The position numbers were made by a program, and so were the translations under genes. DNA of 62,365 nucleotides, filler included. It is 9 parts of 9 records of this genome, joined end to end, with 100 filler letters (N's around TTAATTAATTAA, not from the genome) between each part and the next. Parts side by side here need not be neighbours in the genome. Positions count along the whole stretch, not along the records: positions 30,326 to 37,484 come from DRR723986_35810; 8 more parts are not named here. One strand, 5' to 3'. Shown piece after piece: positions 32,620 to 37,724 of this stretch (positions are counted from its first letter, which is position 1; each line of letters begins with the position of its first letter). The notes below the pieces were generated by a model. The model saw only the letters and a list, made by a program, of their open reading frames with translations. It searched no databases and was not told the origin of the DNA.

Positions 32620-33732
32620 CTACGATGTGTTTAATTGCACAGTGCGAATTACGGCTTGAGTGATCTGCGCTGTATTTGCATTTCCACCCAAATCTGGTGA
32701 CAGAAGTCCGGCATCGAGAACATTTTCCACTGCTTGTTCTATGGAGCGCGCGGCTGAAGCAACTCCAAAGCTATACTCGAACATCATGCCAACCGAAAGG
32801 ATGGCCCCAATGGGGTTAGCGATGCCTTGTCCCGAAATATCGGGCGCACTGCCATGGGTTGGCTCATAAAGTCCGCCCTTTACGCGATGCCCTGCCTGGG
32901 CGGCAGCGGGTAGATTCGCCGAGGGCAGCATGCCCAAAGACCCAGACACCACAGCAACCAGATCCGACATGAGGTCGCCAAACAAGTTGTCAGCCAAGAG
33001 CACGTCAAAGTCTCGTGGCGCGCGGGCTACAGCAAACAACGCATAGTCCATCAAAAGGTGGTTCAGTTCGACATCCGGGAACTCCTCGCGCCCAATTCGG
33101 TCGACAGTTTCACGCCAAAGCTTGCCGCTCTCCATGACGTTGGACTTGTCCAGGGATGTGACATGACCGCGCCGACCACGTGCGGCCTCGAAGGCGCACC
33201 GTGCAATGCGCTCAACCTCATGTGTTCGGTATTCGCTGATCTCGTAGGCACGGATTTGACCATCGGGAAGGACCTCACGGCCTCGGGGCTCGCCATAATA
33301 AATCCCGCCCGCATTTTCCCGCACCACCAAAAGATCAGCCCCGTCCACAACAGCCTTTCTGTAAGGCGTCTGGGACAACAGCGGTTTCCATGACCGCGCT
33401 GGCCGCAAGGCATTAAACACATCGAGCTCTATCCGCAGACGCGTCAAACCGTCTGTCTCGGTGATGGGGCCTTTGATTTGGATGCCGTCCCACTTTGGTC
33501 CGCCAACCGCCCCCACCAGCACGGCATCCGCAGCACGCGCTTTGGCCGCAACAACGTCGGTGCAAAAGGTGCCATGTACATCCCAAGAGGCCCCGCCAAG
33601 AAGGTCTTCCTCGATTTCAACGGGAATATCGAAAAGGGCTGCAGTATGGCGCAACACGTCCAGCCCGCTGGCAACAACTTCAGGCCCGATGTGATCACCG
33701 CCAAGAGCCAAAACTTTGAACGGGCCGCTCAT
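32620..33732 (-). CDS. Beta-decarboxylating dehydrogenase (isopropylmalate/tartrate dehydrogenase family), outside a leu operon
   Basis: GDHIGPEV, VVRENAGGIYYG, DKSNV, NLFGDLMSD, YEPTHGSAPDISGQGIANP. Confidence 0.9.
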   Translation of the reverse strand: MSGPFKVLALGGDHIGPEVVASGLDVLRHTAALFDIPVEIEEDLLGGASWDVHGTFCTDVVAAKARAADAVLVGAVGGPKWDGIQIKGPITETDGLTRLRIELDVFNALRPARSWKPLLSQTPYRKAVVDGADLLVVRENAGGIYYGEPRGREVLPDGQIRAYEISEYRTHEVERIARCAFEAARGRRGHVTSLDKSNVMESGKLWRETVDRIGREEFPDVELNHLLMDYALFAVARAPRDFDVLLADNLFGDLMSDLVAVVSGSLGMLPSANLPAAAQAGHRVKGGLYEPTHGSAPDISGQGIANPIGAILSVGMMFEYSFGVASAARSIEQAVENVLDAGLLSPDLGGNANTAQITQAVIRTVQLNTS

Positions 33733-34922
33733 CCTGCCATCCCCTGGCGCAAAACCATATGCATGGCGTCCGGGTCAAGATCCCGCTGAAGTAGGCGAAG
33801 GCTGGAATGAAAGTCATCCAGATCCACTGAGGATGTCAGAACTGCCCTTGGTGGGGTTTCCGGGGTAAACCCGGTGCGCCCATGCAACAGCCGCTGGTTG
33901 TCAAACAGCAACCCCTCTCCGGCTTTCAAGTCGAGGGTTAGGCAAAGATCATCATCGTAGAGTATCGCAAAAAGCCGTTTCAGAGCCCGGTATGCTGGCA
34001 CAACCTGATCAGCGGGCACATCCAGAGGTGAGATTTGCCGTTCGTTCATCCGCACGCCGCAAACCTCACCCTGATCGTCCAGCTGTATGACCGGCAGGCG
34101 AGATTTGTACCAGCGCTCGTTACCATGGCTATTGTCACCAGGGTCAAAGCGCTGACAGGTAACCCGCATATTGCACAGCAGGTCAAAATCCTCTGGCCAG
34201 CTCTCTTTCAGCCGCCGCACCGCTTCAAACCCGTCTACCAACGTGGAGGCGCCGCCGTTCGAGCTGGGATGCAGAACCTGAAATACGGTAATCCCGATAG
34301 CAGCGTAGCGATATGGCTCGTCCACATGAGGATCAAGCGGGCCTGTTGTATCTCCCACGTTGGTGACGGTTTTCTTGGTTTTGAGCGTATAGGTCCCGAA
34401 ATGCGTCTGCCTTTGTGCACCAACCAGATTGATCATCCGAACGCTCTCTGCTTTGTCGGTTGGGACATCAGTAATCTTGCAAAACCCATAGTCCCGTACA
34501 GCTTCTAGGATGCGCAACCTTACCGCAGGATCAGATTCTGCTTCGGTCAACGAACCGCTGGGTGGACTTACGGCAATGGATCTATTCCAAAGGACTGGAT
34601 CTTGGCGCCTGTTGGTGCGCTCGGTCTCTGAATAGCAATGATTGCGCAGCCACCGGGCAGGATACTCTGACGAGTGCCCATCCGGCCATGCCACCCGCAC
34701 TGCGCTGTCTGTAAAATCGACATTGGAGAATGTGATCGTCTCGTCAAAGTGCTGCAGGCGGATGCCACGCACACCTGTTTCCGGTGTTCCACATTTCGGG
34801 CACCAGCATTGGTGTCGCAGCCAGATGGCGTGAAAACGACTTTCATGCCCGTCTCCCCATTGGACGACCAAAAGGCCGTCTTGATAGGTGGAAGATCGGA
34901 TGCTGTGGCGTTCAGATCGCAT
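33729..34922 (-). CDS. Fe(II)/2-oxoglutarate dioxygenase, gamma-butyrobetaine hydroxylase-like (TauD family)
   Basis: N-terminal WLRHQCWCPKC (GBBH-like Zn domain), HVD and DNQRLLHGR. Start at ATG 34922. Stop overlaps the next start (ATGA). Confidence 0.88.
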   Translation of the reverse strand: MRSERHSIRSSTYQDGLLVVQWGDGHESRFHAIWLRHQCWCPKCGTPETGVRGIRLQHFDETITFSNVDFTDSAVRVAWPDGHSSEYPARWLRNHCYSETERTNRRQDPVLWNRSIAVSPPSGSLTEAESDPAVRLRILEAVRDYGFCKITDVPTDKAESVRMINLVGAQRQTHFGTYTLKTKKTVTNVGDTTGPLDPHVDEPYRYAAIGITVFQVLHPSSNGGASTLVDGFEAVRRLKESWPEDFDLLCNMRVTCQRFDPGDNSHGNERWYKSRLPVIQLDDQGEVCGVRMNERQISPLDVPADQVVPAYRALKRLFAILYDDDLCLTLDLKAGEGLLFDNQRLLHGRTGFTPETPPRAVLTSSVDLDDFHSSLRLLQRDLDPDAMHMVLRQGMAG

Positions 34923-35031
34923 AGTTATGTTCCTGTGAGTTTCCTGTCGAGCATAAGGCCGCGGCAGAATCTGTTTGACAAATTCCAATTCATCACAGGA
35001 TGGTTGAGCTGACCTCAACCATGGAGATCAG

Positions 35032-35931
35032 ATGCTGCCCGACCCCAAAAACCCATCCTATCTTGGCGCATTGATCTATTTTCATCATGCTGCAGAAACA
35101 TTGAGTTTTTCGCGCGCAGCGCAGGCTCTCAACGTAACGCCTTCTGCTGTCAGCCATCGCATAACCGCATTGGAAGCGGCCTTGGGAAAACGCCTTTTTG
35201 AAAGGCGCGTGAGAGAAGTTCACCTAACGCAAGATGGCACCGAACTGGCAAGGGCAACGTCAAGGATCTGGTCTGAACTTCAGGGAGTTACCGAACGATT
35301 AAGCACTCAAGAGGTGTTACGAGTGTCTATCGGCCCCTATTTGTCGTCACAATGGCTGCTTCCGCGCATCGGGGAATTTGAAACGCAACATCCCGGCTTG
35401 CGTATTGATTTGATCCACGTGATTGGACAAGCAGACGCGCGTTTGGCTGACGTTTCGATCATCTGGTCCAGCCTGGATGGTTCCGAGGTAAAAGCTTCGC
35501 AATTGTTCGACACAAAGGCCATTCCGGTGGCAGCGCCGGGATTGCAATTTGATGATGCCTTTTGGAATGGGAACTTGGCTCCAATCCATTACCGCGATCG
35601 CTGTACTTGGCGGCATTGGCTTTCGGCATCCGGTGTACCAACAGACTTTGCAGATCGCGGTGAAATTCTGGAAGAGCCTCATATTGTTCTAGAGGCTGCG
35701 GCCTATGGTCGAGGTATCGCAATTGGCTTCCTCCCCTTCATCGGAAAATTCTTTGAACAAGGCCGACTTGTTCCTGTGGGATCGAAAGCCATCCGTTCTG
35801 GCAGAGGCTACCGAATAGCTGTGAACACCAGCGAGCGACCAATGGCCGACCTGTTTGCTGATTGGGTGATCCGTCAAGCCAACGATGAGGTATTTTCAAC
35901 GGCAACAGAAGTAACATCCAAATCGGATTGA
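35032..35931 (+). CDS. LysR family regulator (GcvA-like)
   Basis: HTH LSFSRAAQALNVTPSAVSHRI and WLLPRIGEFETQHP. Divergent from the dioxygenase. Confidence 0.93.
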   Translation: MLPDPKNPSYLGALIYFHHAAETLSFSRAAQALNVTPSAVSHRITALEAALGKRLFERRVREVHLTQDGTELARATSRIWSELQGVTERLSTQEVLRVSIGPYLSSQWLLPRIGEFETQHPGLRIDLIHVIGQADARLADVSIIWSSLDGSEVKASQLFDTKAIPVAAPGLQFDDAFWNGNLAPIHYRDRCTWRHWLSASGVPTDFADRGEILEEPHIVLEAAAYGRGIAIGFLPFIGKFFEQGRLVPVGSKAIRSGRGYRIAVNTSERPMADLFADWVIRQANDEVFSTATEVTSKSD

Positions 35932-36063: not shown

Positions 36064-36183
36064 CCGAGCTAGACGCAGCGCAAATTGGCGTTGAGCCCAA
36101 CTTACTGATTTTTTGCGCCGCAGCTGATGACCGCTTTGCAGCGTCGTTGACTTTGCTCTCTTGGGTGCTTTACGTCTGATCAC

Positions 36184-36234
36184 ATGATGGATTCGTGTTC
36201 TCAGTCTCAGGAGTATTATCCTCAGCTTCGATAG
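36184..36234 (+). CDS. Putative leader peptide MMDSCSQSQEYYPQLR* (Tyr-Tyr)
   Basis: 16-codon ORF not in the ORF track. TTGACT at 36147 puts the transcription start near the ATG. It precedes prephenate dehydrogenase. Confidence 0.68.
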   Translation: MMDSCSQSQEYYPQLR

Positions 36235-36329
36235 CTGCGGGTCATTCATCATTGGTTTTCCGCTGCCCCCTGACAGCGGTCAACGTACGGACGACCTTAT
36301 GCCGGGCGGCAAATTCAAAGGTCGAAAAA

Positions 36330-37121
36330 TTGAACAGCAACAGTAAAATTCAACACACGTCACTAGGCATCGTGGGATTTGGTGCATTTGGGCAACTTGC
36401 TGCTCTTCATCTAGGTAAGTACTTCGAGATATCAGCGTATGATCCGTCACCGGGCCTTGCCAAGGTCGCCCAGCAACTCGGGGTGTCTCTTTCATCGTTG
36501 TATTCAGTGTCGCAGGCTGATGTGATCCTCATTGCGGCACCAGTCTCTTCATTTGAGCAGGTTGTCAGCGAGATCGCGGTTGCTTGTAAATCTGGCGCGC
36601 TGATTGTCGATGTTGGCTCAGTCAAAGTAATTCCCTCGGAAATCATGCAACGGTTGCTACCGAACAACGTAGATATCGTCGCAACCCATCCATTGTTCGG
36701 TCCACAGAGCGCTGCGGAAGGAATTGAGGGATTGAAAGTTGCGGTCTGCCCCATTCAGGGAAGGCGGCATTCGAGGTTGGCTGCTTTTTTACGCAAGTCT
36801 CTCGGTCTGACTACCATCATGACGACACCAGAAGAACATGACCAAGAAGCAGCTGTCGTCCAGGGTCTCACGCACCTCATCGCCAAAGTGCTATTGAGAA
36901 TGGGACCATTGCCAACGCGCATGACAACGAAGAGCTTTGACTCGTTATCTGAAGCGATTTCCATGGTTCAGCACGATGCGCCAGAAGTATTTGAAGCGAT
37001 TGAGAAGGCCAATCCCTACGCTGAGACCGTACGACGAAGATTTTTCGATTTGGCGGCCAATTTGAGTGACGAGTTGGAAGCAGCCTCTACGCCAATGTCG
37101 CGCGACGAAGGTGGTCATTGA
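36330..37121 (+). CDS. Prephenate/arogenate dehydrogenase (TyrA family), stand-alone
   Basis: GIVGFGAFG, VDVGSVK, HPLFGP, TPEEHDQEAAVVQGLTH. Start placed at TTG 36330 and is uncertain. Confidence 0.9.
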   Translation: MNSNSKIQHTSLGIVGFGAFGQLAALHLGKYFEISAYDPSPGLAKVAQQLGVSLSSLYSVSQADVILIAAPVSSFEQVVSEIAVACKSGALIVDVGSVKVIPSEIMQRLLPNNVDIVATHPLFGPQSAAEGIEGLKVAVCPIQGRRHSRLAAFLRKSLGLTTIMTTPEEHDQEAAVVQGLTHLIAKVLLRMGPLPTRMTTKSFDSLSEAISMVQHDAPEVFEAIEKANPYAETVRRRFFDLAANLSDELEAASTPMSRDEGGH

Positions 37122-37724
37122 TCGAGCAACGCGCAAGGTCAGCTTCCTCCCGCATAGGAGGCCTTCTAGATAATCGCTGCAAAAGCCCGGTGTTCGGCCC
37201 GGCGGGTAAATCAATCATATCCACTTTGGAGCTGCGAGCAGTCGGCAAGAACGACCCGACGAAACCACTGGAGAGATTTCAAGCTGACTTTAAAGAGCGT
37301 TCCAACACAGCCACCAGCATGACGCTCTTAACCTCTGGCCAAACCCGATACGGCAGGCATAATGTCCGTACGCACTCAAAGTGAGTTGCTGCAAGTATCC
37401 CTGTTACAGTGCTATGGAACACTTATTCCTACAGTAACCGGAAGAGGCAGGATAATGCCGGAAGAACCCGGACAGGATCAGTAANNNNNNNNNNNNNNNN
37501 NNNNNNNNNNNNNNNNNNNNNNNNNNNNTTAATTAATTAANNNNNNNNNNNNNNNNNNNNNNNNNNNNNNNNNNNNNNNNNNNNCAAGGAAGGTATGGGG
37601 CAAGCTTGGTCAGGTAGTTAAGAATTCTGGAAAAACCATATGAAAGTGGAGAAAAAGTTTTGCAGCTAGCTTGTAGGGTTACAATGACACAGAAGATTTC
37701 AAACTGAGTATTTGTCTAAGAATA

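Follow-up and report, generated by a model that had tools for sequence, protein, structure and literature searches.

What does a short upstream open reading frame (uORF) with two adjacent tyrosine codons do in front of a tyrA-family gene? The question is raised by a stretch of 62,365 nucleotides of DNA (hereafter the window), a chain of contigs joined by paired runs of N, in which such a gene and its leader lie on the contig at 30326-37484. A first-pass annotation had described here a TTGACT hexamer followed by a uORF with TAT TAT, four codons, TAG and GCGG, and had proposed that the leader responds to tyrosine. Every one of these elements was found in its place, the order at the locus being TAT TAT, four codons, TAG, CTGCGG, and only three short open reading frames with the form Tyr-Tyr (YY), four codons and stop occur in the window on both strands. 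After comparison with relatives, we consider it likely that the leader is a ribosome-mediated, tyrosine-codon-sensing attenuator of an accessory arogenate/prephenate dehydrogenase gene, with a mainly translational output. Sensing of the tyrosine codons by the ribosome appears highly probable, and the sensor together with a switch between the pairings 1:2, 2:3 and 3:4 of four leader segments seems well founded; for a translational output we put the chances at about even.

Relatives of the gene were collected in a scan of one genome per species, which gave 95 stretches encoding a relative, 80 of which were kept. Their hosts are Rhodobacteraceae/Paracoccaceae of many genera, Roseibium, Pseudovibrio and some metagenome-assembled genomes of Rhizobiaceae (51-87% identity), and include named strains of Ruegeria, Roseovarius, Marivita, Pseudovibrio and Roseibium. 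When the 76 loci with enough upstream DNA and the window were taken together, 73 had a 16-codon uORF ending in YYxxxx and a stop about 144 nt before the gene. The leaders of the window and of 70 loci were then aligned with MAFFT, and the counts given below refer to these 71 leaders unless another set is named. Ten loci were left out of this alignment: two as duplicates (the leader of L010 is that of L009, and the leader of L037 that of L032), four that were cut by a contig end (L064, L076, L078 and L079) and four with an aberrant leader or gene (L031, L067, L075 and L080).

The uORF is exactly 51 nt long in 71/71 leaders, which encode 65 distinct peptides. In-frame stops are found in none of the leaders, and stops in the other two frames occur in 62 (frame +1) and 5 of them. 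Y11 and Y12 are each present in all 71 and undergo synonymous changes only, codon 11 being TAT in 67 and TAC in 4 leaders and codon 12 TAT in 56 and TAC in 15. The stop is TAG in 70 leaders and TAA in one. Residues 2-10 are variable, and codon 16 is NNA and encodes eight different amino acids. P13, Q14 and L15 are kept in 67, 59 and 61 leaders, respectively. Most non-synonymous changes in codons 13-15 preserve helix P1, formed by segments 1 and 2, through G-U pairs (CAG to CGG, CUU to UUU), and the wobble base of the Pro codon, which lies opposite a mismatch in P1, is free to vary. Thus, codons 13-15 appear to be constrained as RNA and the Tyr codons as codons. By this comparison, a uORF with Tyr-Tyr at this site is far beyond chance, and the leader would share with classical attenuators a short uORF with at least two codons for the regulating amino acid.

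More distant leaders pointed in the same direction. A metagenome scan with the divergent member L073 as query gave 26 loci, and the covariance model R1 gave 86 leaders in 87 sources. The proposal of the first-pass annotation had been made to depend on a conserved YY uORF before tyrA homologues, and the uORF was present before the gene in 85 of the 86 model matches, the sole exception being L067, and by eye also in L129. The geometry of YY, four codons and stop holds even where the four codons differ. The uORF of L125 reads MTMNPCSGLYYASLS, with ASLS after YY, and that of L129 reads MSKIPHTTAIYYCLPN, with CLPN after YY (both by eye); the enzymes encoded downstream are 62% and 54% identical, respectively, to that of the L073 query. 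Both leaders retain YY, four further codons, TAG, a G-rich segment 2 and an identical stem of helix P2, formed by segments 3 and 4, and in both P0, P1 and P3 (described below) are re-made from other sequence, as judged by eye. These features speak for a rule of position and against an arrest peptide of specific sequence.

RNAfold of 36175-36345 gave three hairpins, P1, P2 and P3, which reproduces the three hairpins drawn in the first-pass annotation, and all three recur in the relatives, P1 and P3 with compensatory changes. The fold of the single sequence is not beyond chance (z = -1.04; 34/200 shuffles fold as well). In it, P1 joins 36219-36226 to 36234-36241 and spans the uORF stop codon, and P3 covers the ribosome-binding site AAAGG, which precedes the TTG start at 36330 by 8 nt. 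From the MAFFT alignment, RNAalifold predicted P1, P2, P3 and a small inner hairpin, P3a. Across the 71 sequences 98.5% of 1633 helix cells are paired, with 18 changed on both sides compared to 3.0 in shuffles (0/500), and slid controls of the helix alignment gave pairing of 24-47%. For 84 distinct sequences, in an alignment fitted to the model, changes on both sides are found at 6 pairs and in 29 cells, compared to 2.2 and 4.5 when shuffled (0/500). Most of the covariation sits in P3, where four of seven pairs have changes on both sides in the 84 distinct sequences and three in the MAFFT alignment; P2 is essentially invariant. The Shine-Dalgarno sequence therefore lies in a conserved helix (AAGGUCG of P3), which is a trait of translational attenuators.

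A fourth helix, P0, is new in the present analysis and joins the start of the uORF to the linker between segments 2 and 3, so that the whole uORF lies inside a P0-P1 hairpin. Its 8 pairs are paired in 96.7% of cells of the MAFFT alignment, which was not fitted to structure, and 4 pairs are changed on both sides. The cells changed on both sides number 12, compared to 3.4 in shuffles (0/500). P0 is also compensated in L125 and in L072-L074.

Segment 2 (GCUGCGGG) is complementary to segment 3 (UCCGCUGC), and the six 2:3 pairs that were tested form in 71/71 leaders. The median energies of the hairpins are -11.1 (1:2), -10.9 (2:3) and -9.1 kcal/mol (3:4), and in 70/71 leaders the 2:3 hairpin is either more stable than 3:4 or less stable by no more than 2 kcal. 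We assume that a ribosome shields the RNA to about +13 to +15 nt beyond the first base in its P site. A ribosome stalled at Tyr12 would thus cover the leader to nt 44-46, which includes segment 1 only, and a ribosome at the stop codon would cover it to nt 59-61, which includes segment 2. This geometry would explain the unvarying four codons followed by a stop.

The end of the -35 hexamer lies 30-32 nt from the uORF ATG in 78/85 leaders. By the spacing rule for promoters, transcription would begin at the uORF AUG or 1-2 nt from it, given a 17-18-nt spacer and a -10 element containing the conserved TA. The uORF has no Shine-Dalgarno sequence in front of it and is likely leaderless.

We propose that the leader most likely switches the gene on at tyrosine shortage. 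The promoter at its fixed distance would probably start the transcript at or beside the uORF AUG, and a ribosome would read the 16-codon uORF. With charged tRNA-Tyr plentiful, the ribosome would run to the UAG and cover segment 2, and segments 3 and 4 would pair as P2; after its release, P0 and P1 would close over the uORF and P3 would bury the Shine-Dalgarno sequence of the enzyme gene, giving the OFF state. With charged tRNA-Tyr scarce, the ribosome would wait with a Tyr codon in its A site, covering segment 1 and not segment 2. Segment 2 would then be free to pair with segment 3, P2 would be blocked, and expression of the enzyme would rise, mainly by relief of P3 and possibly reinforced by Rho polarity on an untranslated gene. 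The uORF with its invariant Tyr-Tyr and its spacing, the helices P0-P3, the buried Shine-Dalgarno sequence and the match between segments 2 and 3 are seen in the sequences themselves. We infer where the transcript starts, that the ribosome stalls, that 2:3 replaces P2 and, most of all, that P3 opens once P2 is lost.

The leaders were also folded at equilibrium with ribosome masks that reached nt 41-46 for the stalled ribosome and nt 59-61 for the ribosome at the stop. In the window copy, the modelled cost of freeing the Shine-Dalgarno sequence fell from 3.9 kcal/mol with the ribosome at the stop to 1.1 kcal/mol with the ribosome stalled, a relief of 2.8 kcal/mol, and the modelled probability that this sequence is unpaired rose from 0.02-0.03 to 0.22-0.40 on stalling. 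Across the family, the difference in freeing cost between stop and stall exceeds 1 kcal in 27/71 leaders and 2 kcal in 12/71, and runs the opposite way by more than 1 kcal in 3/71.

Several results weigh against the proposal. The median of this difference is only 0.59 kcal/mol in the family, where the median probability that the Shine-Dalgarno sequence is unpaired is 0.07-0.08 alike for the free, stalled and stop states, so that P3 stays closed; it is 0.07 even with segments 1-3 masked. No opening of the Shine-Dalgarno sequence was seen in the folding of L125 and L129. The 2:3 helix is invariant and shows no covariation; what supports it is complementarity. A stalled ribosome might also leave P0 free to form behind it, and P0 would then cross 2:3. 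Two regulatory codons are the minimum for such a sensor, and a simple sigma-70 scan left the leader promoter uncalled. Because P3 is clearly under selection, we nevertheless hold a translational output to be the likeliest one.

The absence of a U-tract after the 3:4 hairpin, which the first-pass annotation had pointed out, was confirmed. The hairpin is followed by UCAAC in the alignment, none of the aligned leaders has a U-tract at this place, and no terminator-like site was called on the + strand between 35800 and 37484. P2 is thus not the intrinsic terminator of a classical attenuator, a GC-rich hairpin with a U-tract. The annotation had left three explanations for this, namely that the copy is translational, Rho-dependent or decayed. 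The copy is not decayed, and since the lack of a U-tract is the norm in the family, the first two stay the right pair of options.

The main rival to a translational output is a pause- or Rho-dependent output at P2. It would use the same Tyr sensor, with P2 as a hairpin-stabilised pause site or a site of Rho/NusG termination without a U-tract, 2:3 as the anti-terminator and P3 as a constitutive damper. The layout of 1:2, 2:3 and 3:4 and the spacing from codons to stop are as in classical transcription attenuators, only the formation of P2 depends directly on the position of the ribosome, and in the models the state of segments 1-4 has almost no effect on P3. The RNA that follows P2 and the opening codons of the gene are moreover A/C-rich and G-poor, and Rho-dependent attenuation has been proposed for terminator-less Cys leaders (PMC1262725, in part). 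We nonetheless regard this output as unlikely, given that P2 lacks both a U-tract and a called terminator, that no rut-like C-rich tract of the usual length is evident, and that the compensatory changes in P3, a helix rebuilt in L125 and L129, show that masking of the Shine-Dalgarno sequence is itself under selection.

The two other explanations do without a sensor of tyrosine codons, and we give them little credit. If the leader with P0-P3 were a binding site for a protein or a small ligand (a riboswitch or RNA operator) and the uORF an accessory that, for example, keeps the RNA unfolded during synthesis, the P2 stem could be expected to stay as it is, invariant in 84 distinct sequences and in L125 and L129 while its loop varies. 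Unpaired stretches such as UUGGUUUU before P2 are also highly conserved, and the coupling between uORF and P3 is left unexplained by the folding. The invariance of P2 is, however, equally expected if segment 3 has to fit both segment 2 and segment 4, and a passive reading frame needs neither selection on Tyr-Tyr at the codon level nor a strict spacing of four codons. Rfam gave no match at the gathering threshold across the whole window and only chance-level, unrelated families at E <= 10. All this makes a binding site quite improbable. We give still less credence to the idea that the uORF encodes an arrest peptide like TnaC or ErmCL, or a micro-peptide acting in trans, with YYPQL rather than the Tyr codons as the functional part. 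The fixed length and the conservation of P13, Q14 and L15 among the close leaders would fit such a peptide, but YY is the only part of the peptide that is conserved in both the close and the distant leaders. The free residue 16, the variation in residues 2-10 and the number of distinct peptides also speak against it, as do the substitutions in codons 13-15, which track RNA pairing and not amino-acid similarity (Q to R, L to P).

Other connections within the leader were considered and rejected. A kissing interaction between the C-rich loop of P2 and the G-rich loop of P3a was set aside as the P2 loop differs in L115, L116, L122, L124, L125 and L129. A 4:5 relay, in which GGUC after P2 pairs with GACC of the 5' arm of P3, has 4-5 bp, is broken in L074 and was uncompetitive in folding. 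No complementarity was seen by eye that would let the Shine-Dalgarno sequence pair directly with segment 1 or the Tyr codons in the style of the mycobacterial Cys short open reading frames (sORFs). The NTG of P3a was also considered as the start of a second, relay uORF or as an in-frame start upstream of that of the gene, and was dropped, since its first base is A, G, T or C and its frame relative to the gene differs between copies with a TTG start and copies with an ATG start. As a separate observation, Phe-Phe was seen at uORF codons 5-6 in 48 and 50 leaders, respectively, and not in the window copy. We can only speculate that a ribosome stalled at these codons would leave P1 intact and that a shortage of Phe might hold the gene off.

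The gene behind the leader belongs to the TyrA family, although not in the form first supposed. Its product matches Pfam PDH_N with 73.9 bits and PDH_C weakly (21.5 compared to a cut-off of 22), and all NCBIfam equivalogs for prephenate dehydrogenase remained below their cut-offs, the best reaching 118.2 of 310 bits. The closest solved chains are annotated as 'Prephenate dehydrogenase 1' (5t9f, 5t95 and 5t9e; E about 1e-23, with 1.1e-23 for 5t9f), and the canonical bacterial enzymes are much further off (1.9e-11 for 4wji and 1.7e-6 for 2g5c). Asp216 aligns to chain position 222 in an ungapped block, and 81/81 family members carry D216 as well as H120, the His of the THPLFGP motif. Clade I (plant-like) TyrA enzymes, some of them alpha-proteobacterial, have an acidic residue at position 222 and are arogenate-specific (PMC5681985, in part). 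From the Asp at this specificity position and the closest solved chains, the gene is best called a clade I (plant-like) TyrA, an assignment made from search E-values and D216, and its product is probably an arogenate dehydrogenase. The five carrier genomes that were searched each hold a stronger PDH_N match (about 133-139 bits, in an open frame of 308-335 amino acids) beside the tyrA paralogue, which has about 70-78 bits in the same genomes. We take the stronger match as the canonical TyrA-family gene, and the leader-bearing gene would then be an extra copy. The earlier assignment to an enzyme that makes tyrosine stands, and the housekeeping prephenate dehydrogenase gives way to an accessory plant-like TyrA with a predicted preference for arogenate.

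Promoter, leader and gene form a unit of about 1.1 kb. Across 81 loci, no shared neighbours were found outside the conserved DNA, and the largest cluster of flanking open reading frames besides the gene, with 8 loci, was a spurious antisense frame over the leader. Of 151 genomes sampled from the family, R1 matched 2, and one of these was the reference genome itself. All 8 R1 matches in the five carrier genomes lie directly upstream of this tyrA paralogue, as does the match in G020. Some genomes carry two or three copies, and broken copies are found beside insertion sequences. In L031, an insertion sequence splits the gene and leaves the leader 1.4 kb upstream. Together, these features give the pattern of an accessory, horizontally moving unit, for which no transfer machinery was identified. 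Among 72,556 plasmid records 2 matched and none held the whole module, and no terminal inverted repeats or attC-like ends of the module were seen by eye. L067/L087, a second copy in genome G004, has the 5' half of the leader with promoter and uORF replaced by unrelated sequence. The gene is 5'-truncated in L075, and L080 (51% identity) has no leader.

Some individual copies deserve mention in their own right. In the region 1390-3756 of L031, the insertion carries a gene for a 411-aa transposase on the minus strand, about 16 codons into the TyrA paralogue, and the leader is intact. In L067/L087, segment 2, P2 and P3 are retained and the gene, at 69% identity, has an open frame; this copy may be regarded as a natural sensor-less variant. 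L088, a third copy in genome G003, is frameshifted, and L141, on the Thioclava nitratireducens plasmid NZ_CP123976.1, is a 5'-truncated copy beside a transposase of the ISKra4 family. Several copies in one Pseudovibrio assembly lie at contig ends, which suggests a repeated element.

The features of the window copy are collected in the table. In the alignment of 70 upstream regions, conservation begins at about GAGCCC, with none before about 36091 and moderate to high conservation after it, and at the other end similarity among 15 loci stops, by eye, about 45 nt past the stop codon of the gene. The G+C content of the window contigs is very uneven, from about 0.35 to 0.65, and the window is a mixed assembly or bin, whose separate contigs need not share one organism. 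The upstream neighbours of the window copy (32620-35931) are an Iso_dh-family dehydrogenase, a dioxygenase resembling TauD/gamma-butyrobetaine hydroxylase and a LysR regulator, and none of them was kept beside the module in the other loci.

Table. Features of the tyrA-family leader and gene in the window, with the evidence for each
Feature	Position	Strand	Evidence
Conserved block 5' of the promoter, 5' edge of the conserved module	36091..36146	+	MAFFT, 70 upstream regions
-35 hexamer TTGACT; TTGAC part nearly invariant	36147..36152	+	alignment
Likely -10 element TACGTC, TA conserved	36171..36176	+	conserved TA; inference
Leader uORF, 16 codons and TAG, MMDSCSQSQEYYPQLR	36184..36234	+	ATG 36184, TAG 36232-36234
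P0 5' arm, uORF start codon and codons 2-3, AUGAUGGA	36184..36191	+	pairs with 36245-36252
Tandem Tyr codons, uORF codons 11 and 12, TAT TAT, proposed sensor	36214..36219	+	71-leader alignment
Segment 1, P1 5' arm, last base of Tyr12 through codon 15	36219..36226	+	RNAalifold, pair counts
Segment 2, P1 3' arm, last two stop-codon bases and CUGCGGG; also complementary to segment 3	36233..36241	+	pair counts
P0 3' arm, linker between segments 2 and 3	36245..36252	+	pair counts
Segment 3, P2 5' arm CCGCUG	36260..36265	+	nearly invariant in 84 distinct sequences; identical in L125, L129
Segment 4, P2 3' arm CAGCGG	36274..36279	+	no U-tract after
P3 5' arm CGACCUU, anti-Shine-Dalgarno	36292..36298	+	compensatory pairs
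P3a, small inner hairpin GCC / GGC	36301..36310	+	RNAalifold, pair counts
P3 3' arm AAGGUCG, holds Shine-Dalgarno core AGG (36319-36321)	36318..36324	+	RNAfold, RNAalifold, pair counts
Predicted accessory TyrA-family gene, TTG start, 263 aa, Asp216	36330..37121	+	Pfam PDH_N
Conserved 3' tail of the module	37122..37165	+	downstream sequences of 15 loci, by eye

The window holds a further leader with adjacent aromatic codons, on a separate contig. It encodes MTHPFAMSVYYRAFS and a stop at 18016-17969 on the minus strand and is followed by a canonical terminator of hairpin and U-run at about 17937-17910 (minus), a GNAT gene at 17874-17413 and a BCCT-type transporter at 17067-15418 (both minus). 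The claim that this leader and the tyrA leader form one tyrosine-responsive family was not supported, since R1 misses the GNAT leader even at E <= 10. When 25 homologues and the window (26 GNAT loci) were compared, 14 had a short uORF bearing two adjacent aromatic residues (WY, FY, WF, FF, YF or YY); YY was present in only 5/26, and the closest relative, with a 78% identical GNAT, has TY. From these sequences, it looks like a separate, undescribed and aromatic-flavoured family before a GNAT-transporter pair that is not specific for tyrosine.

Taken further, the data allow a tentative picture, which we would not yet back: a 'tyrosine emergency' cassette of about 1.1 kb that is self-contained and spreads horizontally. 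Its parts would be a promoter of its own, a leaderless one-shot uORF that senses Tyr and whose start codon is locked in a helix, a plant-type arogenate dehydrogenase, and an undescribed, terminator-less form of attenuation that passes the 1:2 / 2:3 / 3:4 switch on to a distant Shine-Dalgarno hairpin or to Rho. If this is true, culturable marine Alphaproteobacteria would offer the first family of tyrosine-specific leader-peptide attenuators that can be studied by experiment. The leader family offers about 90 natural variants with clear covariation and, because it has no terminator, can reveal how a signal from the position of a ribosome reaches Rho or a distant ribosome-binding site. Such a regulated single-gene unit, passing a plant-like arogenate dehydrogenase between marine Alphaproteobacteria, would also bear on the management of tyrosine supply where a canonical TyrA-family gene exists.

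Leader-peptide attenuation is textbook knowledge for Trp, Phe, His, Leu, Thr and Ile/Val. Neither a tyrosine-codon leader of a tyrA gene nor any other tyrosine-specific leader peptide was found in the literature searched or in Rfam. The tyrA leader resembles trpL, pheL and hisL of E. coli in its predicted overlapping 1:2, 2:3 and 3:4 pairings of similar strength and in a downstream gene that makes the sensed amino acid. A further likeness is a stop that follows a few codons on, between segments 1 and 2 (partly general background, and in part 10.1101/834739). In contrast to these leaders, it has a 3:4 hairpin that lacks a U-tract and is not an intrinsic terminator, it has two further conserved helices, P0 across the uORF start and P3 across the Shine-Dalgarno sequence, and it would sense tyrosine and control one accessory gene instead of an operon.

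Close precedents for a design without a terminator are the terminator-less Cys leaders and the LEU element of Actinobacteria (PMC1262725, in part). In mycobacteria, cysteine-responsive translational attenuation by leaderless polycysteine sORFs has been described, and the tyrA leader shares with these a (probably) leaderless sensor sORF, the absence of a terminator, a Shine-Dalgarno sequence held in a helix and codons for the end product (10.1101/834739, in part). The tract of Cys codons in the mycobacterial sORFs itself pairs with the Shine-Dalgarno region, so that a stalled ribosome frees the Shine-Dalgarno sequence directly (same source, in part). In the drug-inducible translational attenuators of the ermCL-ermC type, the ribosome is stalled by a drug together with a specific nascent peptide (partly general background, and in part 10.1101/834739), whereas the peptide of the tyrA leader is not conserved apart from YY. 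The tyrA leader differs from the mycobacterial sORFs in having two codons and not a run, and in placing them about 100 nt from a Shine-Dalgarno sequence that a local hairpin masks; the signal would therefore have to be relayed through segments 2-4.

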